Below, one piece after another: positions 5,510 to 45,142 of a stretch of 61,410 bases of DNA; within the stretch, counting starts at the first letter, position 1; each line of letters begins with the position of its first letter. The stretch covers positions 1 through 61,410 of the forward strand of contig DMEZ01000013.1 of NCBI GenBank assembly GCA_003450735.1, read 5' to 3'. The notes below the pieces were generated by a model that was not told where the DNA came from, searched no databases, and was given only the letters and a program-made list of their open reading frames with translations. Origin of the DNA: Elusimicrobiota bacterium (lineage in GTDB: Bacteria > Elusimicrobiota > Elusimicrobia > UBA1565). Made by a program: the position numbers and the translations under genes.

Positions 5510-5510
5510 C

Positions 5511-7467: not shown

Positions 7468-7514
7468 GGCCGCCTCCCTTGCATGGATGCCATTGAGGTA
7501 TACTCTACCATCTC

Positions 7515-8879: not shown

Positions 8880-9104
8880 GCCGCCCTCACGGTAGCCCGA
8901 CCGACGAGGGGTCGGGCAGGTCCCAGGCCTTCCACAGGCGCAGGTAGTCCCTGCTCGAAAGCAAAACCAGCTCGGCCTTCGAGGCGGGGTCCAGCCAGCG
9001 AAGCAGCCGGATCATCCGCTCCTCCGAGAGCGCGACGCAGGCCGAGGTCTGGTCGCCGGCCCCGGACGATAGCGGAATCGAAAGCGCGCTTGTATAATGC
9101 GTGC

Positions 9105-11300: not shown

Positions 11301-11382
11301 GGAGCGGGAGATAGCGGGTCAGATTCCGGGCCTTCTTCTTGCGGAAGAAGGGCACCGTAGCGTAGAATAATGGAGAGGCCCC

Positions 11383-11793: not shown

Positions 11794-11796
11794 CCT

Positions 11797-12213: not shown

Positions 12214-12365
12214 TGGGGCGGCGCATCCCCGCGAACGCGGGCCGGGACTTCTCCGCCGTATCGATCCGGCCGCCTTGCAGACTATAGGATATTTCACCCT
12301 ATCCTGGACCTGGAAGGCCTCCAGGCCCGGGGTATTGTTGTAGAATCCCGCCTGAGCCGAGCTTC

Positions 12366-13958: not shown

Positions 13959-15556
13959 CCCGCCTTCGGCGTATAGCCGGGGATGCGGCTCTCGTCCACC
14001 GCGTCGATCTGGGCCGGGGGGAGGAACTGCTTGGCGTACGCCAGGTACACCTTCTCGCGGACGAAGACGTCGAAGAGGTCGGGGTCGATGTGTCCCCCGA
14101 GCTTCATCTTCCCCAGGATCTCCAGCGCTTCCGACAGGGTCTTGCCCTTCTTGTAGGGCCTATCCGCGGCGGTGAGCGCCTCGAAGATGTCCGCGATGCC
14201 GATCATGCGCGCCTGCACCGACATCTGCTCGCGCGTGAGCCCCTTCGGGTACCCCTTGCCGTCCATGCGCTCGTGGTGGCCGCCGGCGAACTCCGGCACG
14301 TTCTTCAGCTGCTTCGGCCAGGGGAGCGATTCCAGCATCTTGATGCTGACCTCGATGTGGCGGTTGATGATCCGCCGCTCCTCCTCCGTCAGGGTGCCGG
14401 CGCGGATGGTGAGATTCTTGACCTCGTCCTCGCTCAGGAAATCGGCCGTCCGGCCGTCGGCGCCGCGCCACCGGTAGGCGGCGATCCGGCGCACGCGCGC
14501 GCAGTCCTCCTCCGCCATGAACTCGCCGCCGACGTTGCAGCGCCGCAGGAAAGCGCGGTCGTCCTCGAGCTGCCGGAGGCGGGCCTCGTAGGCGGCGCGG
14601 AGGGAGGCTTCGCCGCCCCCGGCCGCCAGGGCGCGCAGCAGTTCGATCTCGGCATCCCGCTTGAGCACTTCGAAGCGCGTGTCCAGCAGGTGGATGCGGT
14701 CGAAGATGGTCTGCAGCTTGGTGGCCTTGTCGACGATGTCCACCGGAGTCGTGATCTTGCCGCAGTCGTGCAGCAGCGCCGCGATCTTGAGCTCGTGCCT
14801 CTGCGCGTCGGTCATGTCCGCGCCCGCCGCCTCGGCGAGCATCATGGTCAGGGCCGGCACGCGCGCGCAGTGGCCGCCGGTGTAGGGGGATTTGTCGTCG
14901 ATCGCGGTATTGATGAGGACGACGAGGGATTCGAAGAGCTCCTCGAGCTGCTCGATCAGCCTCCGGTTGGTCAGCACGATGGCGGCCTGCGAGGCGAGCG
15001 ACTCGAGCAGGTGCTGGTGGTCCTCGTCGAACGGGACGATCCCGCCGCTTTGCGGGTCCTGGGCGTTGATCAGCTGCAGCACCCCGATGACCTCGTCCTC
15101 GTGGTTGAGCATCGGCACCGTGAGGAAGGAGGTGGAGCGGTAGCCGTTCTTCGCGTCGAAGCTCTTCGTCCCCGAGAAGTCGTACTCCTCCGCGGCGTAG
15201 GCGTCCGGGAGGTTCACCGTCTCGCCGCTGAGCGCGGCGTGGGTGACCACCATCTTGTGGTCGGGCCGCCCCTCTTTGTCGTAGAGGGAAATCGGATCGA
15301 AGCGGATGGGCACGCCCGAGGTGCCGCCCATCGCGACCTTCAGGGAATCGGTGCGCAGGATGGCGAAGCGCAGGACCCGCTGCTCCGGGTCGTGGAGGTA
15401 GAGGGTGCCGGCGTCGGCGTTGGCGACGCGCTTGGCGGCGAGCAGGATGGTCTCGAGCAGGTGGTCGAGGTCGCCCTGCCTCGAGAGCGCGATGCCGATC
15501 TCGTTGAGCTCCTTGAGGCGGTGCGCGAGGTTCTCGTCGGAGCGCATGGGCGTCAT
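13955..15556 (-). CDS. GAF domain + HD-GYP domain c-di-GMP phosphodiesterase
   Basis: HD motif LLHDCGK. HD-GYP signature HHERMDGKGYP. N-terminal GAF-like region. ATGA overlap with the upstream gene. Confidence 0.8.
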   Translation of the reverse strand: MTPMRSDENLAHRLKELNEIGIALSRQGDLDHLLETILLAAKRVANADAGTLYLHDPEQRVLRFAILRTDSLKVAMGGTSGVPIRFDPISLYDKEGRPDHKMVVTHAALSGETVNLPDAYAAEEYDFSGTKSFDAKNGYRSTSFLTVPMLNHEDEVIGVLQLINAQDPQSGGIVPFDEDHQHLLESLASQAAIVLTNRRLIEQLEELFESLVVLINTAIDDKSPYTGGHCARVPALTMMLAEAAGADMTDAQRHELKIAALLHDCGKITTPVDIVDKATKLQTIFDRIHLLDTRFEVLKRDAEIELLRALAAGGGEASLRAAYEARLRQLEDDRAFLRRCNVGGEFMAEEDCARVRRIAAYRWRGADGRTADFLSEDEVKNLTIRAGTLTEEERRIINRHIEVSIKMLESLPWPKQLKNVPEFAGGHHERMDGKGYPKGLTREQMSVQARMIGIADIFEALTAADRPYKKGKTLSEALEILGKMKLGGHIDPDLFDVFVREKVYLAYAKQFLPPAQIDAVDESRIPGYTPKAG

Positions 15557-16344
15557 TTCGTCTTCAAGTCCTTCAGGTCCCAGCCGTAGAACCAGCTCAG
15601 GGAGAACCGCAAGGTCTTGACCGTCCGATGGAGCTGAGGATAGGTCTCCCAGCAGTATTCCGAGCCGACGTCGAAATACTTGCCCTTGAAGACCGCGGCG
15701 AGGGAGGGCCCGTGCACGTCGTAGTACTGCCGGTTCTTGGAGCGCAGGCGCCAGTCATAGGACGCGTAGGTGTGGAACATCCAGCCCCAGCCGAGCGCCG
15801 CCCAGTCCACACCCTGCCGGACCCAGCCCTGCGAGCCGGAGCCTTCCTCGCCGTGGAGATCGTAGGTCATCTTGCCCCAGGTGGAGAGCGGAAGGGCGAG
15901 CGGGGCGCGGGAGCCCAGGCGGGGCTTCCCGGTCCACTTGGAGACGTCCCAGGAGCTGAACCAGCTGCCGAAGAGGGAATAGTTGTTGTCGTCAAGGGGG
16001 AGGTCGGGATAGCGCAGCCATGCGAACTCCGCTCCGGCGGTGAGGGGCCCTTTCGCGAGCGAAGCGATCAAGGACGGCCCGTAGGTGTTGTAGTAGGTCT
16101 TGTTCTTGTTGCGCACGCGCCAGTTGTACGCGGCGTAGGTGTCCATGTCCACGTCCCCTTTGAACCGGACCCAGCGCACTCCCTGCCTGGCCCAGCCCTG
16201 CACGCCGGTGCCTTCCGTGTCGTCGGAGCCGCGCTTAAGGCTGCCCCAGGTGGAGCCGGGGTAGCCCTCGGGGGAGTAGGTCTCGGAGCCCGCCGGAGCG
16301 GACGCGAAGACGAGGAGCGTCAAAACCGCGGTTCGAAGCCTCAT
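15553..16344 (-). CDS. Secreted W/Y-rich protein with an internal tandem duplication (two ~115-aa repeats)
   Basis: Signal peptide MRLRTAVLTLLVFASAPAGS. Repeat 1 GVQGWARQGVRW...YAAYNWRVRNKNKTYYNTYGPSL matches repeat 2 GSQGWVRQGVDW...YASYDWRLRSKNRQYYDVHGPSL. ATGA overlaps at both ends place it in the bcs operon. Confidence 0.5.
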   Translation of the reverse strand: MRLRTAVLTLLVFASAPAGSETYSPEGYPGSTWGSLKRGSDDTEGTGVQGWARQGVRWVRFKGDVDMDTYAAYNWRVRNKNKTYYNTYGPSLIASLAKGPLTAGAEFAWLRYPDLPLDDNNYSLFGSWFSSWDVSKWTGKPRLGSRAPLALPLSTWGKMTYDLHGEEGSGSQGWVRQGVDWAALGWGWMFHTYASYDWRLRSKNRQYYDVHGPSLAAVFKGKYFDVGSEYCWETYPQLHRTVKTLRFSLSWFYGWDLKDLKTK

Positions 16345-18134
16345 CGGGCCACCTTCCTGAAGTCCTGGGGGGACGGTATCGTGCCGGAAGGCGTCAGCGC
16401 ATATTCGGGCAGCGGCTTCCACTCGTCGCTCTTCAGCCTGTAGACATAGCCTTCGCCGAGCCGCATCACGGCGGCGTTCTCGTCCTCGGCCAGGAACTCC
16501 GTGCCGGGAACCTCCGCGGCGAGAGCCTCCGGCCTGCGGGCGTCCTTGGAGAAGGGGTCATGGCGCAGGAACTCCGCGAGGAGCCAGGCCAGGGCGAGAA
16601 AGCTCGCGGGCTTGGTGATGACCTGCGGTTTCGCGGCATCCGCGTGGAAGGGCTTCCCGACCAATCTCACGGCGACGGGCACGGTCGCGATGGGGGGGAG
16701 CGGGATGTCCCGGACGTCCTTGGCCTGCATCTTCGTGCCGGTCAAGGCCGCGCCGTGCTCCGGCACGAACACCACGACCGCGCTGCGGCCCGATCTCTCG
16801 ACCGTCGAGAGGAAGGATTCCAGCTGTGCGATCATAGCCTCGAGCCTTCCCCTGTAGGAGGCGGCGTCGTCCGGGCCTCCGGAGACTCCCGACTTGTGCG
16901 TTCCCATGTGGAGATTGGCGGTATTGTAGTACAACGCCGCCCTCGGCGCCGACGACTCCTGGCGGGCTTTCCAGAATCGGCTCAGCGCCGCTTCGTCCTG
17001 GCTCATGGGGGAGTCGTCGAACATCCGATAGGCCGTCGGCAGGCCGTCGATGCCGATAGGCGGATCTCCCCGGCCGTACTTCTGCACGTTGACCGCGAAA
17101 TCGGCGTACTTGCCGTCGTTGTTGGTCATCGTGTAGGTCTTGAACCCGACGCTCCTCAGCCGGCCCAGGAGATAACAGCTGGCGGGGGCTTCGTCATAGA
17201 GCGCCTTGTGCCGCATCTGTCCGCAAGGGGCCTTCAGCAGGCGCAGCGACGCCGGGCCACTGTAGGAGCAGGCCGCGCTGAAATCGGTGAAGACGTAGTC
17301 GAACCTCGAGAAGAACGGCAGCAGGTCGGCCCCGGCATCCCTGATGTCCTTCCACGAGAGCGAGCAGATGTGCAGGAGGATCACGTCGAAAGGCCGCGCG
17401 CCATTCTCGGGAGGCGGGATCGCCACCACCCTGCGGCGTTCCTTCCGGTAGAAAGCCGCCGGCGACGCGCTGGGCCCCTCCGGCTCGGCCTCCTCCTCCG
17501 CCGGCTCCGGCTGCGGGGCGGGCGCCTCGGACCGGGCGAGGGCGGCTACCCTGTCGTAGAACGGGTCCTCGGGCAGCGGCTTCCTCGGCTCCAGGACCGG
17601 CCTCCTCGAGAGTTCCGCGGGAGCGTCCTCGCCCTCCAGGGCCAGGACGCCGTGCTTCGCCTGCAGACCCCACGCCGCGCCGAAGAGGACGTAGGCGCAG
17701 AGGGCGAGCGTCAGGGGCTTCCTGCGTGAGACGAGGAAGCATGCCGCGCAGAGCGCGAGCCCGGCCGCGAGCATCGGCAGGTTCAGGAACTGCCAGAGGA
17801 ACTCCGATAGGTAGCGCGCCGACGGGCGCTGCTTCGGGTCCGCCAGAAAATCAATGATCGTCATGGGAGGAGGGAGGAAGGATTCCCGCCACAGGAGCGC
17901 CAGCGCCGCGACGGCCGCCGACGCCCCGATGAGAGCGGTGAGGAGGCGGCTCTTCTTCGGGGGGGCGTGGAGCGCTAGATGCACGGCAAGCGCGAGCGCC
18001 CCCGTCAGGGCCGCATCGAGGGTGAGATAGCCGGCCAACGAGAGGACCGCCGCCGCGGCCAGGTACGCGTACCAGGCGGCCGCCAGCTCCTCGGAGAACC
18101 CACGGGGATCGAACGCCAGGCCGGCGATTCTCAC
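16341..18134 (-). CDS. bcsG: Cellulose biosynthesis protein BcsG-like phosphoethanolamine transferase (N-terminal TM domain + alkaline-phosphatase-like domain)
   Basis: N-terminal multi-TM region. Catalytic-domain motif ILLHICSLSWKDI (Cys/Ser ligands). PEHGAAL (Glu-His). The gene sits immediately downstream of bcsB. Confidence 0.55.
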   Translation of the reverse strand: MRIAGLAFDPRGFSEELAAAWYAYLAAAAVLSLAGYLTLDAALTGALALAVHLALHAPPKKSRLLTALIGASAAVAALALLWRESFLPPPMTIIDFLADPKQRPSARYLSEFLWQFLNLPMLAAGLALCAACFLVSRRKPLTLALCAYVLFGAAWGLQAKHGVLALEGEDAPAELSRRPVLEPRKPLPEDPFYDRVAALARSEAPAPQPEPAEEEAEPEGPSASPAAFYRKERRRVVAIPPPENGARPFDVILLHICSLSWKDIRDAGADLLPFFSRFDYVFTDFSAACSYSGPASLRLLKAPCGQMRHKALYDEAPASCYLLGRLRSVGFKTYTMTNNDGKYADFAVNVQKYGRGDPPIGIDGLPTAYRMFDDSPMSQDEAALSRFWKARQESSAPRAALYYNTANLHMGTHKSGVSGGPDDAASYRGRLEAMIAQLESFLSTVERSGRSAVVVFVPEHGAALTGTKMQAKDVRDIPLPPIATVPVAVRLVGKPFHADAAKPQVITKPASFLALAWLLAEFLRHDPFSKDARRPEALAAEVPGTEFLAEDENAAVMRLGEGYVYRLKSDEWKPLPEYALTPSGTIPSPQDFRKVAR

Positions 18135-18140
18135 GGCCCT

Positions 18141-20306
18141 CTACTTGCCCGTGATCCGCTTCTTCCTGTACTTGTTCAGGAAGTAGAACAGCGCCAGGCT
18201 GAGGGCGACGACGACGAGGGCCAGCAGGGCGTAATACAGCCACGGATGCGCGTACAGGTACGCATCCATCTTCGAGATCGGGCCGGCCTTCCCAGCGAAA
18301 TACTTCCTCCCGATGCTCACGGCGATCATGTTCTTCTCGGGGTCGTTGAGGTCGAGCAGGACGAGGTCGCCTTTCAGGTTCGCCTGCACGCTGTACTTCA
18401 TGAGGGCGAGGGAGAGGGCCCGGACTTCCTTGGGAGTGCGGGCGGTCAGCAGGACGACGCTGTGCCCTTCGCCGTAGGGTGATTGGAACTCCATCACCGC
18501 GCCGGTGTTCGTGCTCAGCCCGCTGACCTGCCGGCTGAACGCGAACTGCGATTCGTCCGCCCAGCCCTGCACGACGGGGTAGGGGAACGACATCTCCTTG
18601 GTCAGCGCGAGGGGCGCCTTCTCGCGAATCCCGGCGGGCAGGCTGTCGATGTCGCCGATGATCATGAGCTCGCCGTCGTATCTCTTGGGCGGCTGGGTGA
18701 TGAACTGGATCTCCAGGAGCGGGTGGCCGTTCTTCTGGGTGATCGAGCCCAGGAGGTTCAGCGCGGCCTCGATGCCCTCCCGGCCCGTGTTCGCCAGGTA
18801 GACCCTGGCGCCGTGCCCGTCGGGCCAGCGGGTGATGGGGAACCCGTTGAGCATGAAGAGCTCCAGGCGCGGCATGTCCACGTAGTGCGGCATGGGCGGG
18901 AAGCGGATCGTGGAGACGTCCATGACGGTCAGGAACAGGTTCTGGGTCTGGAAATACTCGCAGTTCTTGCCGATGGAAGGCGTCAGGACGGGCTCCAGCC
19001 GCAGGACATTGCTCCCCGGCTTGAAGAGGTAGGTGGGGATGTCCAGCATGTAGCCTTCGACGAGGCCGCCCTTCTCGTCGTTGAGGTGGATCCCGCGCAG
19101 GAGCTGGCCGTTCAGAGACAGGTTCACGACCGAGTCGGAGCGCCCGGCGGCGCCGTAGGAGTAGCTCAGCGACAGCTTGGCATAGAGGTTCTGCTTGATG
19201 AGGAAATCCGGGGGCAGGCGGAAGCTCAGCTCCGCCATGCTGGAGTTGATGCCCTTGAAGGTGCGGGTGGGGAAGTTCAGGGACTTGAAGGTGTAGGTCT
19301 TGTCCGCCTTGATGACCTCCTTGCCGCCGTAGAGCGGGATGTCCGGCATCTTGATCCCCGTCACGGTCATCTCGTCCATCTCCGGGAACGGCGCGGACAT
19401 GATGGCGAAGGTCTCGGCGGCGAGCTTCAGGTGGTCCTTGTTCAGGCCCGATACGACGAGCAGGGCATGGTAGGGGTCGCTGAGGCCCTCCCGCACCTGC
19501 CGGACGGGCAACGGCATGATCTTCAGGAACGGCCCCTTGACCCCCGCTTTGGCGTCGTACCCCGCCGCCTCCAGGACCCTGCCCGCGAAATCCGCGTCCC
19601 CGATGAGGATGTTGTCGTAGCCGGGCACGATCTCCCGCGACACGGCGAAGACGACTTCCCGATAATCGAACCTCATGGCGACGCCGGAGGCGATGATCCC
19701 GGCGATGGAGATGGTTTCCGCGGAGCTGTCGGGCATGACGATGACGACCTCGCCGCGGGGGGTCAGCTTGGGGTCGAAGAGGAAATTCGTGACCGCGGAC
19801 AGCCTCAGGGGGACCCGTTCGAGGGCATACTCGATCTCGAGGACCGCGTCGTCGTCGCCCAGCTTGAGCGTGGTCCAAAGCTCGGGCTGGCACGGGAATT
19901 CGCAGCCCATGGTGTAATGCTGGTGAGCGATGAAACTCAGGTCGTTGTAGCCCGGCTTGAACAGCTTCGCTGGCAGGTCCACCTTCATCGCCCCTTCGGG
20001 GGCCAGCGGGTTCAGGTTCCTCTGCGCGACCGCCTCCCCGTTGAACCTCACGATCAGGCGCGAGTTGGCGGCCAGGAGGGCGGTGGAGTTGACGAAGCCG
20101 AAGGAAAGCGACGCCTTCTTGACCTTCCAGCGCTCCGGGACAGGCAGGGACACCCCGTATTCGGCGGCCGTGCATTTGAGGTCGTAGCGCGTGGCCGAAC
20201 TGACCTTGTAGAGCGGGATCCGGATGGTCTCGGAGTGCGCCGCCTCGAGGCCTGCCGACGAGAGCAGGGCGCACGCCAGCATCGCGGAGGCGAAGGGGCG
20301 TCTCAT
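18141..20306 (-). CDS. bcsB: Cellulose synthase subunit BcsB-like (periplasmic, C-terminal TM anchor)
   Basis: Signal peptide MRRPFASAMLACALLSSAGLEA. Large periplasmic protein with a single C-terminal TM helix (YYALLALVVVALSLALFYFL), the topology expected of BcsB. Located in the bcsA operon. Confidence 0.6.
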   Translation of the reverse strand: MRRPFASAMLACALLSSAGLEAAHSETIRIPLYKVSSATRYDLKCTAAEYGVSLPVPERWKVKKASLSFGFVNSTALLAANSRLIVRFNGEAVAQRNLNPLAPEGAMKVDLPAKLFKPGYNDLSFIAHQHYTMGCEFPCQPELWTTLKLGDDDAVLEIEYALERVPLRLSAVTNFLFDPKLTPRGEVVIVMPDSSAETISIAGIIASGVAMRFDYREVVFAVSREIVPGYDNILIGDADFAGRVLEAAGYDAKAGVKGPFLKIMPLPVRQVREGLSDPYHALLVVSGLNKDHLKLAAETFAIMSAPFPEMDEMTVTGIKMPDIPLYGGKEVIKADKTYTFKSLNFPTRTFKGINSSMAELSFRLPPDFLIKQNLYAKLSLSYSYGAAGRSDSVVNLSLNGQLLRGIHLNDEKGGLVEGYMLDIPTYLFKPGSNVLRLEPVLTPSIGKNCEYFQTQNLFLTVMDVSTIRFPPMPHYVDMPRLELFMLNGFPITRWPDGHGARVYLANTGREGIEAALNLLGSITQKNGHPLLEIQFITQPPKRYDGELMIIGDIDSLPAGIREKAPLALTKEMSFPYPVVQGWADESQFAFSRQVSGLSTNTGAVMEFQSPYGEGHSVVLLTARTPKEVRALSLALMKYSVQANLKGDLVLLDLNDPEKNMIAVSIGRKYFAGKAGPISKMDAYLYAHPWLYYALLALVVVALSLALFYFLNKYRKKRITGK

Positions 20307-20322
20307 GGAGCGCGTGATTCTA

Positions 20323-21282
20323 TCAAAAGTAATTGTAATAGCCCATCCATAGATTCTCGAAGAACCCGCACTGCAGGTCGTTGAGGAGGCCCGCCCGGAC
20401 CTGTTCCGCGATCTCGTGCTCCGCATGGCATGCCCCCGCGCCGGCGTGGCCGCCTCCGCCGTACCTCTTCATGATGCTACCGATGTCCAGGGGGCAGGTC
20501 CTGTCGAGGACGGATTTTCCCGCCGCGAAGAACGCCCGGCCGCTCTTCCCGGTCGAGGAGACGTGCATGGACACGTTGCACTCGGGGAACAGGGCGTAAG
20601 TCATGAACTTGTTTCCCGGGACGATCCGCTCCTCCTGCCTCATGTCGGTGAGGACGAGGTTGGAGTGCACCGACGCGCATCTCAGGATCTGGCCCTTGTA
20701 CTCGTCGATGCACGCGAAATAGAGCTCCAGCCTCTCCTCCACGTCCGGGATGCTCAGGAGCTCCCATACGGTGCGGCGCTTCGCCTCGTCCATCAGCTCG
20801 ACGATGAGCTCGTCGTGGGACGCACGGAACCTCTTGAACTGCTCCAGGCCCGTCCTCGTGTCGATCAGGTAGCTCAGGAGGGTCCAGCCCGTCGGATACA
20901 GGATCTCCTCGCTCGCGATCCGGGCGCTGAAGCCCTTGTCGACCGCGTCGAGGATGTCGTCGTGGATGCCCGCGAACCGCTCCGCTCCGTAATGGTTGAA
21001 GATCACCCTCGCCGTGGAGGGCGCCCGGGTGTCGACCTTCAGATTGTGCTTGTCGACCGCCGGCTTGTGCGCGGAGGGATAGTGGTCGAAGGCCAGGTGG
21101 GCGTCGTCCTGGTACGGGAGCCCCGCCGTGATGTCGCCGGCCGTGACCTTGAACTTCCCGCTCTCGACGTCCTTCGGGTGGACGAAGGCGACGCTCTCGA
21201 GGAGGCCCAGCTCCTTGAGGAGCATGCCGCAGACCAGCCCGTCGAAATCGCTCTTGGTGACGAGCCGGTATCTTCCGCCCAA
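20323..21282 (-). CDS. DHH/DHHA1-family phosphoesterase-like protein (NrnA-like), with the DHH motif degenerate to DHY
   Basis: Motif I DFDG. FDHY sits in the place of DHH. DHHA1 signature GGGGHAGAGA. Inserted between bcsA and bcsB. Confidence 0.45.
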   Translation of the reverse strand: MGGRYRLVTKSDFDGLVCGMLLKELGLLESVAFVHPKDVESGKFKVTAGDITAGLPYQDDAHLAFDHYPSAHKPAVDKHNLKVDTRAPSTARVIFNHYGAERFAGIHDDILDAVDKGFSARIASEEILYPTGWTLLSYLIDTRTGLEQFKRFRASHDELIVELMDEAKRRTVWELLSIPDVEERLELYFACIDEYKGQILRCASVHSNLVLTDMRQEERIVPGNKFMTYALFPECNVSMHVSSTGKSGRAFFAAGKSVLDRTCPLDIGSIMKRYGGGGHAGAGACHAEHEIAEQVRAGLLNDLQCGFFENLWMGYYNYF

Positions 21283-21283
21283 G

Positions 21284-23557
21284 CTAGGCCTCCGCCCTCG
21301 CCCAGAGGCGGTCGACGTAGCCCGCGAGGCGGTTCGAGTGGAGCTTGACGTGGTCCATCGAGGGGACGAGGATGAACTTGAGCACCGCGACGTAGAACAC
21401 CCGCAAGCCCATGGCGCTCGACTTGAGGAGGAAGAGCAGGATCCACACGGGGTTGGCCGGCTTGGTCTTCTGCTCCCAGAAATCCGCCCACCGCTGGCTG
21501 TCGCCGAAGACGAACTCGACGGCCTCCATGCGCTGCTTCTCGTCGCTCAGGATGAACTCGCAGCCGCAGGCCCAGGTTGTCCCCCTGCGGACCTGCCGCT
21601 GGACACGCGCCTCGATCCTGAATCTCTTGCCGTGGCTGTTCCGGGTCTCGAGGATGAGGTGCTCGAGGGGCGCCAGCTCGTCGGCCAGCTCGAAGGAGAG
21701 CCCGACGCCCGACATGGAGATGTCGTCCATCTGCGCTTCCAGCGCCTTGCCCAGCCTGGGCAGGGTGAGATGCGCCGTGCCTTTCGCCCACATCCGGTGG
21801 TGCCGGCGCACCTGCTTGCGCTCGAAGAACGCCCCGAACGACGAGAGCGCCAGCAGGAGGTTCACCAAGCACCACACGAAGGTGATCGTCGTGATGTCCC
21901 GGTAGATCGGGTACGTGTACCACTTGATCGCCGCGGCCGGGACGGCGACGATGAGCACCCCGGTCAGCAGGAGGAAGGGCAGGGCGAACCCGCTCAGGAA
22001 GTCGCTCTCCAGGCTCTTCCCCTTCGGCGTCACCTTGAAGGACGGCTTCCTCGGGTTCAGGAAGACGGACAGGACCACGGGGATCAGGAACAAAGACTGG
22101 ATGCCCTCGAAGAACTCCGAGAAGAAGGGCCAGCGGAACCGCCCGTAGAGGAACCCCGTCAAAACCATGGACCCCAGCACGTGCGGGAGCGCGTAGGCCA
22201 AAACCTGGGGCACGGAGGCGAAGAAGACCCTCAAATCCAGGAGCAGGAACGCCGCCGGCGCGACGTAGAAGATGACCCTCGACGCCCCGAAGAACCAGTA
22301 GAAGCAGCTGTTGAAGTAGCAGAGCTTCTGGTAGAGCTTCAGGCCTTTCGCGAACAGCGGGTTGTTCAGGACGAAGATCTGGGTCATCCCCTGGGCCCAG
22401 CGGCTCTTCTGCACGATCAGGTCGTCGAACGTCTCCGGGGAAAGGCCGCAGACCATGGGCCGCGGGATGTAGACGCTCTTATAGCCCCGCTGGTGCAGGG
22501 CCACGGCGGTCTCGCAGTCCTCGGTGATGGTCTCGCCGCAGACGCCCCCGATCTCCTCGAGGCAGCTCCGCCTCAGCAGCGCCGCCGAGCCGCAGAAATA
22601 GCTCGAGTTCCACATGTCGAGGCCCGGGTGGATGCCGCGGTAGAACATGTCGTTCTCGCTGGGCGCGTCCTTGAAGATCGCCATGTTCTTCTCGATCGGG
22701 TTCGGGTTGATGAAGAAGTGCGGCGTCTGCACGAACGCGACCTTCTCGTCTTTCAGGAACCAGCCCGCGGTGTTCTTCAGGATGTCCCTCACGGGGACGT
22801 GGTCGCAGTCCAGGATGAGCACCAGGTCGGCGCTCGTGTGCCCCAGCGCGTGGCTGAGGTTCCCGGCCTTGGCCCTGAGATTCTTCTCGCGCGTGATGTA
22901 GCCGATGCCGTGCCTCTCGGCCAGCCCCTTCAGGGCGTAGTACCTCTCCCAGGCCTGGGGCCCGGTCTTCGGGTCGCACCGCTTCGCGACGGTGGCCCCG
23001 TCGTCGAGGATGTGGATCTTCAGCTTGTTTTTTGGGTAATCGATGTTCAGGGCGGCCAGGGCCGTGAGCTTCACGATGCCGATCGGCTCGCTGTAGGTCG
23101 GGATGAGCACGTCCACGGAAGGGTAGCTGGACGTGTCCGCGGGCAGCGGCATGATCTTGTTCTCGAGCGGCCAGATGCTCGTGAAGATGCCGAGCAGGTG
23201 GACGCTGATGGCGTACATCTCGGCGAGGTAGAGGGCCATCATGGCCAGGGTGTCCGCCGGCCCCGTATAGACCAGGGTCTCGGTCGTCCTCCAGACCACG
23301 TAGCGGAGGGTCAGGAAGGAGGCCAGGACGATGAAGAGGATCCTCAGGGGGGGCTTCTTGACCCTGTCGATGGGCTTGAGGAGGAAAAGGACGGCGAGGG
23401 AGCCCCAGCCGACGACGTACTGGCTGCTGAGCTCCAGGTGCAGCTGCGCGAGATGGTAGAAGAGATAGAGCGCGGCGGCGAGGAACGCGTACGAGAAGCC
23501 CGGGATGACGCCGGGATGCTTCAGCAGGAAGTCCTTCAACGAGCCGGCGGACGTCAA
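21284..23557 (-). CDS. bcsA: Cellulose synthase catalytic subunit BcsA (GT2) with C-terminal PilZ domain
   Basis: GT2 motifs D,D,D (ILDDG, LDCDH), TED, QKSRWAQG (QxxRW). PilZ motifs RRHHR and DISMSGVGL. TTG start at 23557 overlaps the cyclase stop (TTGA). The N-terminal 70 aa of the longer ORF look non-coding. Confidence 0.9.
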   Translation of the reverse strand: MTSAGSLKDFLLKHPGVIPGFSYAFLAAALYLFYHLAQLHLELSSQYVVGWGSLAVLFLLKPIDRVKKPPLRILFIVLASFLTLRYVVWRTTETLVYTGPADTLAMMALYLAEMYAISVHLLGIFTSIWPLENKIMPLPADTSSYPSVDVLIPTYSEPIGIVKLTALAALNIDYPKNKLKIHILDDGATVAKRCDPKTGPQAWERYYALKGLAERHGIGYITREKNLRAKAGNLSHALGHTSADLVLILDCDHVPVRDILKNTAGWFLKDEKVAFVQTPHFFINPNPIEKNMAIFKDAPSENDMFYRGIHPGLDMWNSSYFCGSAALLRRSCLEEIGGVCGETITEDCETAVALHQRGYKSVYIPRPMVCGLSPETFDDLIVQKSRWAQGMTQIFVLNNPLFAKGLKLYQKLCYFNSCFYWFFGASRVIFYVAPAAFLLLDLRVFFASVPQVLAYALPHVLGSMVLTGFLYGRFRWPFFSEFFEGIQSLFLIPVVLSVFLNPRKPSFKVTPKGKSLESDFLSGFALPFLLLTGVLIVAVPAAAIKWYTYPIYRDITTITFVWCLVNLLLALSSFGAFFERKQVRRHHRMWAKGTAHLTLPRLGKALEAQMDDISMSGVGLSFELADELAPLEHLILETRNSHGKRFRIEARVQRQVRRGTTWACGCEFILSDEKQRMEAVEFVFGDSQRWADFWEQKTKPANPVWILLFLLKSSAMGLRVFYVAVLKFILVPSMDHVKLHSNRLAGYVDRLWARAEA

Positions 23558-24369
23558 TTCGTATCGCCCGTGATCGTTACGCTGTGCTCGGTCGTCCGCC
23601 TTTCCTCGTCGGAGCCTGAGCGGCCCAGCTTCCAGTAGGCCGCGGCCGCGAGGAGGATCGCGCCGGCCAGGGCCAGGAGGACCTTGATGCACAGCGGGCA
23701 CTTCTCTTGGACATCCTGGACCGGCTTCCTGGCGGAGAGGTCGCGCTGGATCTCGGTCTTGTTCCAATAGCCCTTGTAGAGCTTCATGGGCTCTTTCTTG
23801 CCCTTCAGCTCGACTTCCTTGGCGAAGCCGCAGTAGATCTCGGCGCGGTCCGAGAGCGCGTTGTAGGCCTCCTCCGAGAGGAGGATCTCGCCGGGGTTCG
23901 CCTGCGCCTCGATCCTGGACGAGACGTTCACGACGTCGCCGAAGATGTCGTTCTTCTCCACGATGCCGAGGCCCACGTGGATGCCGATGCGCATGAGGAT
24001 CGGGATCGTGAGCTTCTTCTCCAGGTTGAACGCGTCGATGCCCTTCTGGATCTCCGCGGCGGCCCGCAGGGCGCTCTGGGCGTTCTCGTAGTAGGACATC
24101 GTGCCGTCGCCCATCGTCTTGACGAGGATCCCGTCGTGCTTCTTGATGACCGGGAAAACGATGTCGAAGTGCTGTTTTATCAGCGTCCGGTGGGCGATGT
24201 CCCCGTGCGTCTCGGCGATGGCCGTGGAGCCCTTGAGATCGGTGAACATGACCGTGATGGTCTTCTGGAACCGGTCCTTGAACAGCTTGTCGAGGCGGGC
24301 GCGCTCCTCGATGATCTTGTCTACGTTCAAATCGTCTTCAGGATCTTCTTTCCGCTGTTCATCTGCCAT
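23554..24369 (-). CDS. Class III adenylate/guanylate cyclase (CHD) with a C-terminal transmembrane anchor
   Basis: Metal-binding Asps in FTDLKGST and KTMGDG. GIHVGLGIV and NVSSRIE motifs. The Lys before TMGDG suggests ATP specificity. C-terminal TM helix VLLALAGAILLAAAAYW. Confidence 0.75.
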   Translation of the reverse strand: MADEQRKEDPEDDLNVDKIIEERARLDKLFKDRFQKTITVMFTDLKGSTAIAETHGDIAHRTLIKQHFDIVFPVIKKHDGILVKTMGDGTMSYYENAQSALRAAAEIQKGIDAFNLEKKLTIPILMRIGIHVGLGIVEKNDIFGDVVNVSSRIEAQANPGEILLSEEAYNALSDRAEIYCGFAKEVELKGKKEPMKLYKGYWNKTEIQRDLSARKPVQDVQEKCPLCIKVLLALAGAILLAAAAYWKLGRSGSDEERRTTEHSVTITGDTN

Positions 24370-24399
24370 GCGTCAGGCCTCGCGCGACATGTATAACAT

Positions 24400-24429
24400 T
24401 TACCAATTAGCATCGCGATATTACCAATT
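24400..24429. promoter_or_regulatory. Direct repeat TTACCAATT x2, spaced 21 bp, in the promoter region of the cyclase-bcsA operon
   Basis: Repeats at 24400-24408 and 24421-24429. They lie 31 and 52 bp upstream of the cyclase ATG (24369, minus strand), in a locally AT-rich 84-bp intergenic region. Confidence 0.35.
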
Positions 24430-24453
24430 TTCCGACTCGCTGACCCTAGGCCT

Positions 24454-26235
24454 CTATCTTCTCAGGGTGAGAGTGAGGGAAGCGCCTTCTCTGGCGAGCG
24501 AGGCCGGACTTGCGGCCGAGAAGGGCCCGGAGGAGGCCGTGATCTCGTAGTCGCCCAGGAACGCGCGCGCTCGATACTCCCCGCGCCAGTCCGCGGTCCC
24601 GCCGGTCTGCGTGTTCCAATCCTTCAGGAGGAGCTCCTCGAGCGCGGCGGCCGCCGGCTTCTTCGACCAGTCCCTCCGGTAGAGCGCCATGACCGGTTCG
24701 GAATGGACGCCCTCCCAGAAGCCCCAGAGGGTGATGCCCTCCACCGCGGGGTGGCTGAACATCGCGGTCATGAAATCGCGCAGGTAATCGGCCTGGAGCT
24801 CCTCGTCGGCCACCTCGACGTCGAGCTCAGTGGCCTGCAGGGGCTTGCCGAGCCGTCCGAACCGGTCGAGGACCCTCAGCAGCCGCTCGGGCGGCGTAAG
24901 GTCGTAGCGGAAATGACACTGCAGGCCGACGCCGTCGAGCGGGGCCCCATCCGAAAGGATCCGGCGGATGAGCGCTTCGTAGCGGTCCTGCTGCTCGAGG
25001 TTCAGGCCGAAGCCGTCCAGGACGTCGTAGTCGTTCACGAAGAGCCTGGCTTCGGGGTCGGCCTTCCGCGCGAGGCGGAACCATTCGAGAGCCTCCCCGC
25101 GGCCCAGGAGGCCGAGGACCTCCGGGTGGCCGATGGGCTCGTTGAGCACGTCCCACTCCGCGGCCTTCCCTCGGTAATAGGCCGCTTCCTCCGTGATGTG
25201 CCCGCGGATGGTTTTCCGCAGTCGGTCCGGGTCGTTCTTCAGGTTCTCCATGCCCTCGGGCATGTGCTCCCAGCCGGGCCAGACCAGGGTATGGCCCCGG
25301 AGCTTGATGCCCCCGGCCTTCAGCCAGGCGGCCGTCTTGTCGGCCCAGGCTCTCTGCTCGCCTTTCCAGAAGGGCCACTTGAGTCCGTTCTCTATGGTGG
25401 CGGAGTTGAAGAGCCGCAGGAAGGTCTCCTTGTAGCGGCGCCGGTCGTCGTCCCGGCCCCCGGAGAAGAGGGTCGCCGAGTTGATCGCGCTGCCGAAGAA
25501 GAACGCATGCCGCTTCAGTCTGACCTGGACGGCCGCGCCCGGCGCCGGCTTCCCGTCCGGGTCCACGACCTTGACCGTGATGCCGGCTTTCCGGATGCGC
25601 TCGATGCGCTCTTCGGCGGCTTTCCTCCACGGGGCCCCGGGCTCCCGGCCTTCATAGAACCCGGCGGCGGGGACCCGGACAGGGCTCCGGCCGAGGCCGA
25701 CGAGCTCGAAGCCGGCGAGCTCCACCGTCTGCGCGCCGAATCCGAGCCTGAAAGCGATCTGCGCTCCCCCGGCCGGATAATCCCCGGCCGACCTGAAAGG
25801 TACGTCGATGCGCCGCCAGCGCAGGCCGGCCTCCGCCGGGAGAACGATGGATTTCCGGTACTCGCCGCCGACCTGCTCGAAGACGAAGTCCACCCGGGCC
25901 TTCGCGGGCGAGAACAGCGGCCTCCGGACGTAGAACCTGGCCGCCAGAAGGTCCCCGGCGCGCACCGGCGCGGCCGTCGGCGCTCTCAACTGCACCTCGT
26001 AAGGCTGAGGCGGCCTGGCCAGGGTGCGCAGGCGCAGCGCCTGCCCGCGGATCGAGACAGCGCCGCGGCCGCCGGCAAGAAAGGAGGCAGGGTCGCTCAG
26101 ATCGGAGGGCCTCACCAGCGGGGTCCCCGGCGGGAGCGGCGGCGCGGCGGGAAGCCTCAAGACGTAGAAGCCGTATGCCGAGTATGCCGCGGCGGCGGCC
26201 AGGGCGGCGCAGGAGGCGGCCAGGAGGCGCTTCAC
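24454..26235 (-). CDS. Glycoside hydrolase family 10 (endo-beta-1,4-xylanase-like) with an N-terminal beta-sandwich (CBM4/9-like) region, secreted
   Basis: GH10 catalytic motifs WDVLNEP (acid/base) and QATELDV (nucleophile). In-frame GTG starts at 26265 or 26235 (MKRLLAASCAALAAAAA signal peptide). Confidence 0.7.
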   Translation of the reverse strand: MKRLLAASCAALAAAAAYSAYGFYVLRLPAAPPLPPGTPLVRPSDLSDPASFLAGGRGAVSIRGQALRLRTLARPPQPYEVQLRAPTAAPVRAGDLLAARFYVRRPLFSPAKARVDFVFEQVGGEYRKSIVLPAEAGLRWRRIDVPFRSAGDYPAGGAQIAFRLGFGAQTVELAGFELVGLGRSPVRVPAAGFYEGREPGAPWRKAAEERIERIRKAGITVKVVDPDGKPAPGAAVQVRLKRHAFFFGSAINSATLFSGGRDDDRRRYKETFLRLFNSATIENGLKWPFWKGEQRAWADKTAAWLKAGGIKLRGHTLVWPGWEHMPEGMENLKNDPDRLRKTIRGHITEEAAYYRGKAAEWDVLNEPIGHPEVLGLLGRGEALEWFRLARKADPEARLFVNDYDVLDGFGLNLEQQDRYEALIRRILSDGAPLDGVGLQCHFRYDLTPPERLLRVLDRFGRLGKPLQATELDVEVADEELQADYLRDFMTAMFSHPAVEGITLWGFWEGVHSEPVMALYRRDWSKKPAAAALEELLLKDWNTQTGGTADWRGEYRARAFLGDYEITASSGPFSAASPASLAREGASLTLTLRR

Positions 26236-26304
26236 GTTCGCTCCAGATGGATGATACGCATCCACCGGATGCGATGCAAGCCGGGAAGCGGCCCCGCGGG
26301 GAGC

Positions 26305-26706
26305 CTAGGCCGGCTTGAGCAGACGGGCTACGGTCTGTTCGAGCAGGGCCGGCTCGATGGGCTTGTCGATGAAGGCCTCGGGCTCCTTGCAGCCGTAGTA
26401 CTCCCCCAGGTCCTCGGCCGAGAACTTCAGCCCGCTGCGCCGGTTCACGGATGTCAGCATGATGACCGGGATCGAGGCCAGGTCCTTGTCGGTCCGCAGC
26501 GCCGCGAACACCCCGAACCCGTCCATCTTGGGCATCTGGACGTCCAGGATGACCAACCGAGGCCTGCTCTGGCGGATCAGCTGGAGCGCCTTCTCTCCGT
26601 CGGGAGCGTCGAGCAGTTCGCAGGGGAAGCCTTCCAGGACGCCCCGCACGAAAGAGATGCAGTCCGGCTCGTCGTCGGCGATCAGGATCTTGGGCTGTTC
26701 GTTCAA
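26305..26706 (-). CDS. Single-domain response regulator (CheY-like receiver)
   Basis: KILIADDEPD, ILDVQMPKMDG, LTSVNR...KPIEP. TTG start with a GAGGAGG SD 7 nt upstream. Paralog of 11797..12213. Confidence 0.8.
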   Translation of the reverse strand: MNEQPKILIADDEPDCISFVRGVLEGFPCELLDAPDGEKALQLIRQSRPRLVILDVQMPKMDGFGVFAALRTDKDLASIPVIMLTSVNRRSGLKFSAEDLGEYYGCKEPEAFIDKPIEPALLEQTVARLLKPA

Positions 26707-26737
26707 GGTCGTTCCTCCTCGGCGTCTCTTCGGCGGG

Positions 26738-27166
26738 TCAGGCCAGCACCTTCTTGACCGTCTCGATCAGGACCTGGGGGTCCACGGGCTTCTCGACGTA
26801 GGCGTCCGGCTTGGCGTCGACGCCGACGACCTTCTTCTTCGCCGCGGCATGCGAGTCGTCGCAGAGGTAGGACTTCATGTCCACGCCCGTGACCTTCGAG
26901 GCGCCGCTCACCACGATCACGGGGACCTGCCGGAAGCCCTCCTGCCGCTTGAATTGGTTGAAGAACGCCAAGCCGCTCTGCCCCGGCATCATGAGGTCGA
27001 GGAAGACGATATCGGGCCTGCGCCCGGAGGCCTTCTCCAGGGCGTCCTTGCCGTTCTTCGCCGAGAAGGTCTCGAAGCCGTGGTCCTCCAGGATCTGCGA
27101 GATGAAATCGATGTTGTCCTGCTCATCGTCCACGACCAGCGCGACCTTGCCGTTGAATTCTGCCAT
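26738..27166 (-). CDS. Single-domain response regulator (CheY-like receiver)
   Basis: VALVVDDEQD, FLDLMMPGQSG, VIVVSGASK. AGGAGG SD upstream of the ATG. Confidence 0.8.
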   Translation of the reverse strand: MAEFNGKVALVVDDEQDNIDFISQILEDHGFETFSAKNGKDALEKASGRRPDIVFLDLMMPGQSGLAFFNQFKRQEGFRQVPVIVVSGASKVTGVDMKSYLCDDSHAAAKKKVVGVDAKPDAYVEKPVDPQVLIETVKKVLA

Positions 27167-27205
27167 GGTCCTCGATCCTCCTGGAATCGGCGGGCTTCGA
27201 AAGCC

Positions 27206-28735
27206 CTACCCGCCCTGCCGGCCTGCGTCCATCGCGGCCTGTCTGCTCCTGGGGAGCCGGAGGCTGAAGGTGGTGCCCCGGCCGAGGGCGGTGTCGACCT
27301 CGATGCGTCCCCCGTGCTCTTGAACGATCTTGCGGGTCACGGAAAGGCCGAGCCCCGTGCCCTTGGAGCCCTTGGTGCTGAAGAAGGCCTTGAAGAGGGA
27401 CCCGCGCGCGGCCTCGTCCATGCCGCAGCCCTGGTCGGCCACGTCCACCGCCACCTCGCCGCAGTCGAGCTCGCGCACGCGCACGTCCACGCCGGCCCCT
27501 TCGCGCCCCTCGCAGGCGTCCAAGGCGTTGGTGACCAGGTTCAGGACGCACCGGCAGATCCCCTGGCCGTCGAGTTCGACCGGGTTCGGCCCGGGGGTCG
27601 GCTCGAAGCGCAGGGGCACGCCCCGCTCGTGCGCCTTGGGAGCCATCAGGTCCACGACGCCCTTCACGACCTCGTTGAGGTCGCACGCCTGGTATTCGGG
27701 CCGGCGCTCCTTCGCGTAGGTCAGCATGTCCTGGACGAGGTTCTTCAGGAGCTCGAGGTTCCTGTCGATCATCCCGATGCTGCGGCCCGGGATGTCCGAC
27801 CCGGCCTTCTTGACCGCGGACTTGAGCAGGTACATCCCGCCGCTCAGCCCGTTGAGCATGTTCTTGATGCAGTGCGCCACCCCGGCTACCGCCTCGCCGA
27901 TGGCGGCCAGGCGCGCGGCCTTGAGGGATTCGCGGATGAGCTGCGCGTTGTGGATGGCGACCGCGATCTGGCCGGCTACGGCCTCCGCGAGGGCGAGGTC
28001 GTGGCGGCTGAAGCCCTCGCCCCCGTTCTTGTTGACCAGCTCGAGGGCGCCGATGCACTGGGAATCGACGATCAGCGGCACGCAGAGGATCGAATGGGTG
28101 AGGAAGCCGCTCTCTTCGTCCGCCTTCTTGGAGAAGCGCGGGTCCTGGAGGGGGTTGTTGACGATGACCGCCAGCCGCTTGGACACGCAGTCGCCCACGA
28201 TGCCCTCGCCTTCCGCGAGGCGGAAGCTCGCCAGCTTGGAGGCGCCGCCCTCCGTCACCACGAACTGGAACACGAGCTCGCGCGCCCCCTTGTCCCAGAG
28301 CGCGATGGTCGCCCCTCCGACGTCCAGCATCTCGCCGGCGATCCGGATGACCGTGGGCAGGAGCTTATCGAGGTCCTGGGACGCGCTGTGGATCAGGCGC
28401 GAAGTGTCGACGAGGCCCCGGAGCTCGGCCAGCAGGAAGCGGTGGGCGTGGTCGTTGCGCCTGCGGCCGATCGCCTGTCCCGTCCTGGATGAGAGCTTAG
28501 CGACGATCAGCCCGCCGCAGCCGCAGGCGACCTCGGTGTCGGCCCGGAACGCCGCCAGGTCGTATTCCCGACCGCAGGTCGGGCAGGACATCCGCTTCCT
28601 TTCGCTGACGATCCGGCGGTAGGCGAGCCACGGGAGGATCCGGATCCTTTCGCCGCAGGAGCACGCGATCTCGGTCTCGTTGAGAGACCGGTCCGCCTCG
28701 TAACGATGACGGCACTTAGGGCATTCGGCCAGCAT
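27206..28735 (-). CDS. Sensor histidine kinase: duplicated N-terminal zinc-ribbon, GAF, HisKA, HATPase_c (cytoplasmic, no TM seen)
   Basis: Two CPxC(x16-18)CxCG repeats (CPKCRH...CSCG and CPTCGR...CGCG). GAF-like region. H-box GVAHCIKNML. HATPase LNLVTNALDA, DQGCGM, GTGLGLSV. Confidence 0.75.
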   Translation of the reverse strand: MLAECPKCRHRYEADRSLNETEIACSCGERIRILPWLAYRRIVSERKRMSCPTCGREYDLAAFRADTEVACGCGGLIVAKLSSRTGQAIGRRRNDHAHRFLLAELRGLVDTSRLIHSASQDLDKLLPTVIRIAGEMLDVGGATIALWDKGARELVFQFVVTEGGASKLASFRLAEGEGIVGDCVSKRLAVIVNNPLQDPRFSKKADEESGFLTHSILCVPLIVDSQCIGALELVNKNGGEGFSRHDLALAEAVAGQIAVAIHNAQLIRESLKAARLAAIGEAVAGVAHCIKNMLNGLSGGMYLLKSAVKKAGSDIPGRSIGMIDRNLELLKNLVQDMLTYAKERRPEYQACDLNEVVKGVVDLMAPKAHERGVPLRFEPTPGPNPVELDGQGICRCVLNLVTNALDACEGREGAGVDVRVRELDCGEVAVDVADQGCGMDEAARGSLFKAFFSTKGSKGTGLGLSVTRKIVQEHGGRIEVDTALGRGTTFSLRLPRSRQAAMDAGRQGG

Positions 28736-29105
28736 GCGTCCCCCTGCTGCGCAGGCGTGCGGCGGGATTAGGGCCTCGGCGCACGGTAACACGCCCCGAG
28801 GACTGAAGACAAATGAATTTTTTTCATCGTCGTATTAGCGCATCTAATATCCGGAGCCTCCGGCCCGGCCGAGACTGGACGTCCATGCCGCATTATACCA
28901 CCCAGGCCCCGGCGGCGGCCAGGACGGCGACGCCCAGCGCCGCGTCCGCGCCGCGACGCCGCCGAAGAGGACCTGCAGCGTCACCTCGAAGGACGTCCAG
29001 CCGAGCCAGAGCGCTCCCGCCACCGGCAGGGCGTTCCTGGCCAGCACCAGCCACGGCCCCAGGTTTCCATGAAGGACTCGGAACGGTTTCTTGGGAGATG
29101 CTCCA

Positions 29106-31112: not shown

Positions 31113-31122
31113 CTCAGAGCTT

Positions 31123-45132: not shown

Positions 45133-45142
45133 GCGGGATCCC

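Follow-up and report, generated by a model that had tools for sequence, protein, structure and literature searches.

A GH10 glycanase gene in a cellulose synthase cluster of Elusimicrobiota, a probable replacement for BcsZ

The GH10 gene and the bcs cluster

The stretch of DNA analyzed here, referred to as the window, comprises 61,410 nucleotides of contig DMEZ01000013.1 (assembly GCA_003450735.1, Elusimicrobiota bacterium; G+C content of about 0.68). Its minus strand carries a cluster of bacterial cellulose synthase (bcs) genes together with a gene for a glycanase of glycoside hydrolase family 10 (GH10). The order on that strand is a GAF histidine kinase gene, two receiver genes, the GH10 gene, an 84-nt spacer, a nucleotidyl cyclase gene, bcsA, a PggH-like gene, bcsB, bcsG, an orphan barrel gene, and a GAF-HD-GYP gene, with a GDPD gene convergent. 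An earlier reading of the same DNA (hereafter the sequence-only reading) had described a GH10 in a cellulose synthase locus, at the position usually held by the GH8 endoglucanase BcsZ. The locus was correctly recognized: the GH10 gene is co-oriented with bcsA, bcsB, and bcsG, all of which were confirmed by profile searches. The position was not, for the gene does not occupy the bcsB-bcsZ-bcsC slot but is preceded by the kinase gene and the two receiver genes and followed by the cyclase gene and bcsA.

The longest open reading frame (ORF) of the GH10 gene (24454..26265, minus strand) encodes 603 aa and was assigned by translation, Pfam, Protein Data Bank (PDB) match, AlphaFold2, and Foldseek. 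This ORF exists as first reported, but its 5′ end had been placed approximately 30 nt too far upstream, because the likely start is a GTG at 26235, with GGAG 6 nt before it, which gives the 593-aa protein called in public assemblies. The Pfam profile PF00331 (Glyco_hydro_10) matched residues 256–541 (profile positions 12–307 of 311; E 2.2e-44; 152.4 bits against a cut-off of 22.1 bits), and 142 GH10 chains in the PDB were matched at E < 0.01. The best of these was XynA of Bacillus sp. KW1 (7D88; E 1.5e-50; approximately 31% identity over window residues 210–576). An AlphaFold2 model built on 31 homologues (predicted local distance difference test, pLDDT, 90.9) consisted of an N-terminal helix (residues 8–36), a beta-sandwich (residues ~65–195), a (beta/alpha)8 barrel with eight strand-helix units, and a small beta-sandwich. 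The top Foldseek matches of this model were GH10 structures (7D88/7D89, E ~1e-31, and 8B73), with TM-scores of 0.77–0.89 on the target. The protein is thus a GH10 enzyme by sequence, fold, and catalytic residues, and it lacks one conserved feature of the family, the lid Trp.

The catalytic barrel (residues 256–541; 24643..25500, minus strand) was found by all of these methods. It is accompanied by C-terminal beta-strands (residues 553–600; 24466..24609, minus strand) that pair with residues 226–253 in a small sandwich resembling that of XynA, according to the model and the XynA alignment. The N-terminal beta-sandwich (residues ~65–195, with modeled strands at 68–192; 25681..26073, minus strand) had been proposed as a possible carbohydrate-binding module (CBM). 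Foldseek, run with the whole model rather than the isolated domain, gave alignments of approximately 545 columns to the two-domain xylanases CBM15-GH10 (1US2) and CBM22-GH10 (2WYS), so the sandwich appears CBM-like in fold. No CBM family was assigned to it by Pfam at E up to 10 or by a 14-sequence profile compared with all PDB sequences. Hence, the proposal stands for the fold and not for a family, and the domain is left untyped.

The synthase gene bcsA (21284..23557, minus strand) encodes a protein with a PilZ domain that scored 804 bits against the 699-bit cut-off of the model TIGR03030 and contains the motifs DCD, TED, and QKSRW, as well as the PilZ motifs RKQVR (RxxxR) and DISMSG (DxSxxG). 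The genes bcsB (18141..20306, minus strand; PF03170, E 5e-110; also a gene call) and bcsG (16341..18134, minus strand; PF11658, E 4e-120) follow, the latter encoding a phosphoethanolamine (pEtN) transferase. The catalytic and zinc-binding residues of E. coli BcsG (C243, S278, H396, E442, and H443) all align with identical residues in the window protein. Because BcsG appears intact, the polymer should carry O6 substituents, which are impossible on xylan; together, BcsA, BcsB, and BcsG argue for pEtN-cellulose as the product of this cluster. In this respect the earlier suggestion of a polymer other than pure beta-1,4-glucan was half right: a pEtN-modified cellulose is predicted, and nothing suggests xylan.

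The sequence-only reading had also raised the matter of a GH8 gene elsewhere in the operon. None was found in the 61-kb window, either by Pfam scans of every large ORF with high G+C content at third codon positions or by tblastn with E. coli BcsZ, and the related loci of Elusimicrobiota described below likewise yielded no GH8 homologue. For BcsC, tblastn with the E. coli query gave no match in either the window or those related loci, and Pfam gave none in the window. In the window, tblastn with E. coli queries gave no match for BcsE, BcsF, or BcsR, and no Pfam match for BcsQ was found among the ORFs scanned; very short or divergent genes could escape either search. Because BcsC, BcsE, BcsF, BcsQ, and BcsR are missing, the system of the window is, as judged from its sequence, not an E. 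coli-type (type II) Bcs system, even though BcsA-PilZ, BcsB, and BcsG are present.

Linkage and active-site divergence of the GH10 clade

The closest homologues of the GH10 protein were found in metagenome-assembled genomes of Elusimicrobiota (65–67% identity). The window also matches a contig from a groundwater metagenome (ENA ERZ909578), and a protein encoded near GH10 is 100% identical, across the aligned 97% of its length, to one from an "Elusimicrobia bacterium" metagenome-assembled genome. When 185,579 species genomes were scanned with a profile of the family, 80 loci were obtained, and their neighbors were probed by tblastn with the window proteins. Genes of the bcs type stood beside GH10 in three of these 80 loci: L004 and L005, both from Elusimicrobiota, and L050, from Solibacter. 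Among the distant genome loci, linkage was observed in 1 of 78. The contigs of metagenomic homologues were also looked up, and P0014 and P0011 (56–57% identity), P0018 (56%), P0021 (48%), P0024 (50%), P0044 (43%), and P0092 (45%) all adjoined bcsG and, where the contig was long enough, bcsA, the barrel gene, and the GDPD gene. In a neighbor-joining tree of 122 sequences, the linked proteins formed a single clade that included the window protein, and the unlinked proteins fell outside it; P0025 (47%) and P0026 (45%), which lie just outside the clade, had no bcs genes nearby. Linkage (bcsG at ≤10 kb) was found in all 10 clade members with readable context but in only 1 of 80 sequences outside the clade (Fisher test, P = 1.9e-12, a value that overstates independence because the sequences are related).

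Nine gene orders were observed in the linked loci. The most frequent was bcsA-barrel-GH10, with 0–4 nt between the barrel and GH10 genes; in others GH10 was convergent on bcsG, and the order in the window was unique. Linkage that is kept through nine gene orders is a classical signature of functional coupling. The comparison therefore supports the view that the GH10 gene truly belongs to the bcs cluster and is conserved with it, rather than being a chance neighbor.

The Solibacter locus (L050, Candidatus Solibacter) was considered as a second independent case and rejected as a probable chance adjacency: its GH10 keeps Trp at position 522 and belongs to a different clade, and all of its relatives in Bryobacterales and Solibacter are unlinked. 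At positions 337-12358, this locus holds bcsQ, bcsA and bcsB fused into one gene (1411 aa), and bcsC, together with a divergent 830-aa GH10 of the same family that has a TIG domain; no GH8 match was found in it.

Active-site comparisons separated the same clade from the rest of the family. The two GH10 motifs noted in the sequence-only reading are intact in the translation: EWDVLNEP, which contains the catalytic acid/base Glu376 (25138..25140, minus strand), and LQATELDVE, which contains the catalytic nucleophile Glu480 (24826..24828, minus strand). Both codons were checked, and the residues align with Glu182 and Glu280 of XynA. As is usual in GH10, the acid/base stands in an N-E-P motif that follows strand 4, and the nucleophile in a T-E-x-D motif that follows strand 7. 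Glu376 was invariant in the alignment of 31 sequences, and both residues were invariant in 121 family members. The −1/−2 subsite set (Lys296, His325, Trp329, Asn375, Gln449, His451, and Trp514) was invariant or nearly so in the family; its counterparts in Cex are Lys47, His80, Trp84, Asn126, Gln203, His205, and Trp273.

Ser522 (24700..24702, minus strand) takes the place of the conserved GH10 Trp of the −1 subsite (XynA Trp322; Cex Trp281, by position). It lies eight residues after Trp514, which aligns with XynA Trp314, a residue that contacts the xylobiosyl ligand in 9RHV; the spacing from Trp273 to Trp281 in Cex is likewise +8. When 25 clade members were compared with 96 other family members over 566 alignable positions, position 522 ranked first for divergence between the two groups. 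In the clade, 23 members have a residue in this column (Ser in 18, Ala in two, Gly in two, Leu in one, and Trp in none), whereas Trp was found in 89 of the 96 other members. Positions 520, 513, 523, and 334 were also among the nine most divergent; all of these except 334 belong to the loop after strand 8 that contains position 522. His334 (25264..25266, minus strand; rank 6 of 566) is specific to the clade, with His in 23 of 25 members and Asn, Tyr, or Trp in others. Alignment to Cex and Xys1 by phmmer places it at Cex Gln87, the discriminator of the −2 subsite.

According to a review (PMC5738707, citing Notenboom 1998 and Ducros 2000), glucose is accommodated in Cex only if the Trp at −1 and the Gln at −2 shift away from its additional hydroxymethyl group, and this shift is costlier in S. 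lividans Xyn10A. Because, by sequence position and alignment, position 522 corresponds to Cex Trp281 and position 334 to Cex Gln87, the active-site positions that mark the bcs-linked clade appear to be the known discriminators between xylose and glucose.

The N-terminus also differed between groups. Core-clade proteins, in a manner resembling signal anchors, begin with a hydrophobic stretch of 22–25 residues that ends in Arg or Lys, whereas signal peptides of the classical cleavable kind are found in the outgroup and in basal members of the clade. In the window protein, the corresponding hydrophobic helix (residues 8–36; 26158..26244, minus strand) was seen in the AlphaFold2 model and may be a signal anchor or a signal peptide, as judged by eye and from the modeled helix only. 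The secretion proposed in the sequence-only reading is thus upheld as predicted export, by way of either an anchor or a cleaved peptide. A lipoprotein signal (LAASC) was considered and rejected, because position −3 holds no Leu, Val, or Ile and the Cys is preceded by too short an h-region. Probably, the helix stays uncleaved and holds the enzyme at the inner membrane.

The orphan barrel gene (15553..16344, minus strand) encodes a secreted protein of 263 aa with an internal tandem duplication, predicted to form a 12-stranded outer-membrane beta-barrel (pLDDT 91.6). The protein is rare, with only 33 clusters among 5.8 billion proteins. In relatives its gene was always accompanied by bcsA and bcsG and was, in most, the immediate upstream neighbor of GH10; at least eight barrel homologues are apparently on the same contigs as GH10 homologues. 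The barrel is a likely BcsC-independent outer-membrane exit for cellulose, and this candidate channel offers a compact outer-membrane glucan pore for structural study.

Two further arrangements were observed around the barrel. In a second cluster subtype (L084, L086, L087, L093, and L094), the barrel gene follows a bcsA whose product is 35–42% identical to that of the window, and no BcsB was found within 10 kb. In the systems known so far, BcsB is regarded as indispensable for the activity of BcsA. In the other arrangement (L095, 8013-13386), a PilZ-less gene resembling cellulose synthases of glycosyltransferase family 2 (GT2) is found with two tiny ORFs, a barrel homologue (35% identity), bcsG, and a GH26 gene. 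The presence of GH26 in place of GH10 suggests a conserved "hydrolase slot" that is filled by different enzymes of clan GH-A.

Regulatory setting, proposed role, and alternatives

The two-component genes directly upstream of GH10 (26305..28735, minus strand; Pfam and gene calls) comprise the GAF histidine kinase (27206-28735) and two single-domain receivers (26738-27166 and 26305-26706), with spacers of 39, 31, and 69 nt from the kinase through the receivers to GH10. Just upstream of the kinase, a gene at 29106-31112 (minus strand) encodes an unusual protein in which a peptidase C26/class I glutamine amidotransferase domain is fused to a GH15 (glucoamylase-family) domain, with a signal-like N-terminus. 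On the other side of GH10, the 84-nt spacer (24370..24453, minus strand) has a G+C content of 50%, compared with approximately 0.68 locally, and contains two copies of the direct repeat AATTGGTAA about 20 nt apart; it may hold an internal promoter or operator ahead of the cyclase gene and bcsA. A scan for terminators and promoters over 13000-32000 gave counts at chance level, with no site in the relevant spacers, and was uninformative on operon structure.

The class III nucleotidyl cyclase gene (23554..24369, minus strand; PF00211, E 9e-23) overlaps the start of bcsA by 4 nt. Between bcsA and bcsB lies a gene for a PggH-like pGpG phosphodiesterase (20323..21282, minus strand), which matched PDB 7D62 (E 1.2e-84) and had no Pfam match; PggH of Vibrio cholerae is a pGpG-specific phosphodiesterase (PMC8861645). 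It is unusual for a bcs operon to include a dedicated pGpG hydrolase next to a GAF-HD-GYP enzyme. The latter is a predicted cyclic di-GMP (c-di-GMP) phosphodiesterase (13955..15556, minus strand; PF13487, E 2e-47; GAF, E 7e-17). The cyclase gene coupled translationally to bcsA, the GAF domains on the kinase and the HD-GYP protein, and a stand-alone cyclic nucleotide-binding protein encoded near the cluster (11371-11793, plus strand) suggest an input of cAMP or cGMP into c-di-GMP turnover and cellulose synthesis. The sole c-di-GMP synthase seen in the window was a GGDEF diguanylate cyclase encoded at 45023-46393 (plus strand), approximately 20 kb from the cluster.

The convergent GDPD-family phosphodiesterase gene (12366..13958, plus strand; PF03009, E 3e-37) may serve to recycle or remove the phospho-head-group modification. 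A GDPD gene adjoins bcsG in every related cluster (L084, L086, L087, L093, and L094), and the L087 copy carries a fused tyrosine-phosphatase-like domain. Approximately 1 kb from the cluster, a gene of the GH3 beta-glucosidase type (8880-11300, plus strand; GH3 N and C domains, Fn3-like) is unconserved in the related loci. A GH3 gene is likewise located downstream of the bcs operon of Komagataeibacter.

We consider it probable, from the sequence comparisons, that GH10 was recruited in one lineage of Elusimicrobiota (uncultured groundwater bacteria) as a dedicated Bcs hydrolase, by non-orthologous replacement of BcsZ (GH8). Of the possibilities raised in the sequence-only reading, a non-canonical editing glycanase is the best, because the linkage is conserved within the clade, no GH8 gene was found in the 61 kb, and the positions that hinder the binding of glucose have changed in the active-site region.

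Under the proposed mechanism, BcsA, with BcsB, would extrude beta-1,4-glucan into the periplasm, where BcsG would decorate O6 of some glucosyl units with pEtN, and the chain would exit through the small outer-membrane barrel of 12 strands. Perhaps tethered next to the synthase, and with the CBM-like domain holding the chain, the GH10 enzyme would cut stalled, mislocalized, or finished chains by a retaining mechanism with Glu376 as the acid/base and Glu480 as the nucleophile. Ser522 in place of the lid Trp, together with the change to His334, would open room for the C6 hydroxymethyl group of glucose and possibly for a 6-O-pEtN group, and the wider −1 pocket would shift the enzyme from xylan toward (modified) cellulose. 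A starting point for such a shift exists in the subfamily, because XynA is weakly active on glucans: its activity was 551 U/mg on wheat arabinoxylan and 5 U/mg on carboxymethylcellulose (CMC), and activity was measurable on Avicel and cello-oligosaccharides (PMC6408826).

Several observations weigh against the recruitment of GH10 as a BcsZ replacement. For XynA, the nearest characterized enzyme, activity on xylan exceeds that on CMC approximately 100-fold (PMC6408826). Ser522 and His334 are matched to Trp281 and Gln87 of Cex by sequence position and phmmer alignment only, and phmmer itself puts the canonical Trp as an insertion beside His521 and Ser522. The loss of Trp in the clade is one inherited event and, therefore, is not independent evidence for each sequence. 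The window protein has a possible cleavage site (AAA/YS), at odds with an uncleaved anchor. GH10 follows the two-component genes and is parted from the bcsA side by the spacer of 50% G+C with its possible promoter. In addition, the GH8 search covered the 61-kb window and the related loci, not the whole source genome.

The last but one of these points is shared by an explanation in which GH10 is a matrix-remodeling or dispersal enzyme, the output of the upstream unit of GAF kinase and two receivers, that degrades the cell's own (pEtN-)cellulose to free cells or to recycle glucan with the nearby GH3 enzyme. We regard this as unlikely, although the gene directly follows the kinase and receiver genes with short spacers, a GH3 gene is present at 8880-11300, and the cluster is rich in enzymes that lower c-di-GMP (HD-GYP and PggH). 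In most relatives GH10 is not beside a two-component system but is coupled to bcsA-barrel (0–4 nt), and the GH3 gene is not conserved in the related loci. Dispersal would, in any case, depart from recruitment as a Bcs hydrolase in physiological timing only and not in substrate.

Substrate is the issue in the two remaining explanations. The polymer of the cluster might not be cellulose but another beta-glycan (for example, one of mixed linkage) or a heteropolymer, to which GH10 is matched. GH10 is primarily a xylanase family, the second-subtype BcsA is 35–42% identical to that of the window and has no BcsB within 10 kb, and in the remoter cluster the hydrolase found with a PilZ-less GT2, the barrel, and BcsG is from GH26, a family containing mannanases. 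This explanation is nevertheless improbable given the window's own genes: BcsA exceeds the cut-off of a curated cellulose-synthase model (804 compared with 699 bits) and has the DCD, TED, QxxRW, and PilZ motifs, BcsB and BcsG are present, BcsG modifies the O6 of hexoses, which xylose lacks, and the clade is without the Trp that favors xylose over glucose. More doubtful still, and disfavored, is an ordinary nutrient-scavenging xylanase that is adjacent to bcs by accident. Such an enzyme would fit the source annotations, which read endo-1,4-beta-xylanase, the xylanase activity of the nearest characterized enzyme, and the wider family of ~600-aa GH10 proteins, which is common in the polysaccharide-degrading phyla Verrucomicrobiota, Planctomycetota, Acidobacteriota, and Myxococcota. 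It would not fit linkage in 10 of 10 clade members across nine gene orders compared with 1 of 80 outside, an active-site change specific to the clade at the most divergent of 566 positions, or an N-terminus changed from a signal peptide to one resembling a signal anchor.

Beyond the recruitment of GH10 as a Bcs hydrolase, we put forward a more specific and only tentative proposal. The bcs-linked clade could be an inner-membrane-tethered endoglucanase specialized for 6-O-pEtN-cellulose, with a −1 pocket opened by the Trp-to-Ser change so that the C6 substituent fits, and a subunit of an undescribed Elusimicrobiota cellulose secretion system that exports through an orphan 12-stranded barrel instead of BcsC, sometimes lacks BcsB, and has its own GDPD, PggH, and HD-GYP enzymes. 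The cluster would represent a distinct Bcs system (no BcsC, an orphan 12-stranded barrel, BcsG, GDPD, and PggH) in a little-studied and mostly uncultured phylum. If the recruitment is real, the clade would also be a natural experiment in the re-specialization of a xylanase into a glucanase, pinned to two mutable residues, Ser522 and His334.

Comparison with known systems

Synthase-dependent exopolysaccharide systems are nearly always accompanied by a dedicated hydrolase or lyase, the role of which is debated. By analogy with BcsZ, the window GH10 is encoded within a cellulose synthase cluster with bcsA, bcsB, and bcsG, is predicted to be exported, and is expected to cut the product of the synthase. 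The two enzymes have no sequence similarity: BcsZ is an inverting GH8 enzyme with an (alpha/alpha)6 fold, whereas the window GH10 is a retaining (beta/alpha)8 enzyme that is larger and multi-domain, has a CBM-like domain, and is encoded at a different position. In pEtN-cellulose producers such as E. coli, BcsZ recognizes pEtN-glucose and clears mislocalized periplasmic polymer (bioRxiv 10.64898/2026.08.24.745826). BcsZ also diffuses freely in the periplasm (bioRxiv 10.64898/2026.08.24.745826), whereas the window GH10, as modeled, is probably membrane-anchored. The window GH10 is thus outside the BcsZ/GH8 family but, by this analogy, probably works like BcsZ.

XynA of Bacillus sp. KW1 (7D88 and 9RHV) is the closest solved structure (TM-score of 0.89 on the target). 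Like the window GH10, it has the WGFWxGxH loop and, around the barrel, a sandwich of N-terminal and C-terminal beta-strands. It is, however, mainly an arabinoxylanase, keeps the loop Trp322, and is without the N-terminal CBM-like domain, the membrane helix, and the bcs linkage. KORRIGAN, a type II membrane-anchored endoglucanase of the plant cellulose synthase complex, belongs to GH9 and acts beside a processive GT2 cellulose synthase; it is eukaryotic and unrelated in sequence to the window GH10, and the comparison is an analogy only.

Hydrolases other than GH8 have precedents, and the statement in the sequence-only reading that cellulose synthase operons "almost always" carry GH8 was too strong. 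CcsZ, the GH5_25 hydrolase encoded in the cellulose synthase locus of clostridia, has been biochemically characterized (PMC7710045). As a retaining (beta/alpha)8 glycanase of clan GH-A in the place of GH8, it is a precedent for the window GH10; it differs in being GH5 rather than GH10 and in having Gram-positive hosts without an outer membrane, and the activity of the window enzyme is predicted only. In the stalk-formation cluster of Zetaproteobacteria, the predicted GH10 Sfz4 is found with the BcsB-like Sfz1 and the GT2 synthase Sfz2 (PMC8250860). Sfz4 resembles the window GH10, a likeness drawn from its description, as a predicted GH10 in an exopolysaccharide cluster of the synthase type, but it has 323–345 aa with the catalytic domain only, and its cluster is without canonical BcsA-PilZ or BcsG.

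Literature searches turned up neither a GH10 within a true bcsA/bcsB/bcsG cluster nor any Elusimicrobia bcs cluster, and a review of Bcs secretion systems (PMC8892547) does not mention GH10, GH5, GH6, or Elusimicrobia. If the proposed role is correct, GH10 in this cluster would be a third solution from clan GH-A beside the GH8 paradigm, after GH5 and the predicted GH10 of Zetaproteobacteria, and the known range of pEtN-type cellulose modification would be broadened beyond Proteobacteria. Compared with these precedents, what stands out here is the GH10 in a bcsA/bcsB/bcsG cluster, the hypothesis for its specificity at the level of single residues, and the BcsC-less setting in which it is found.

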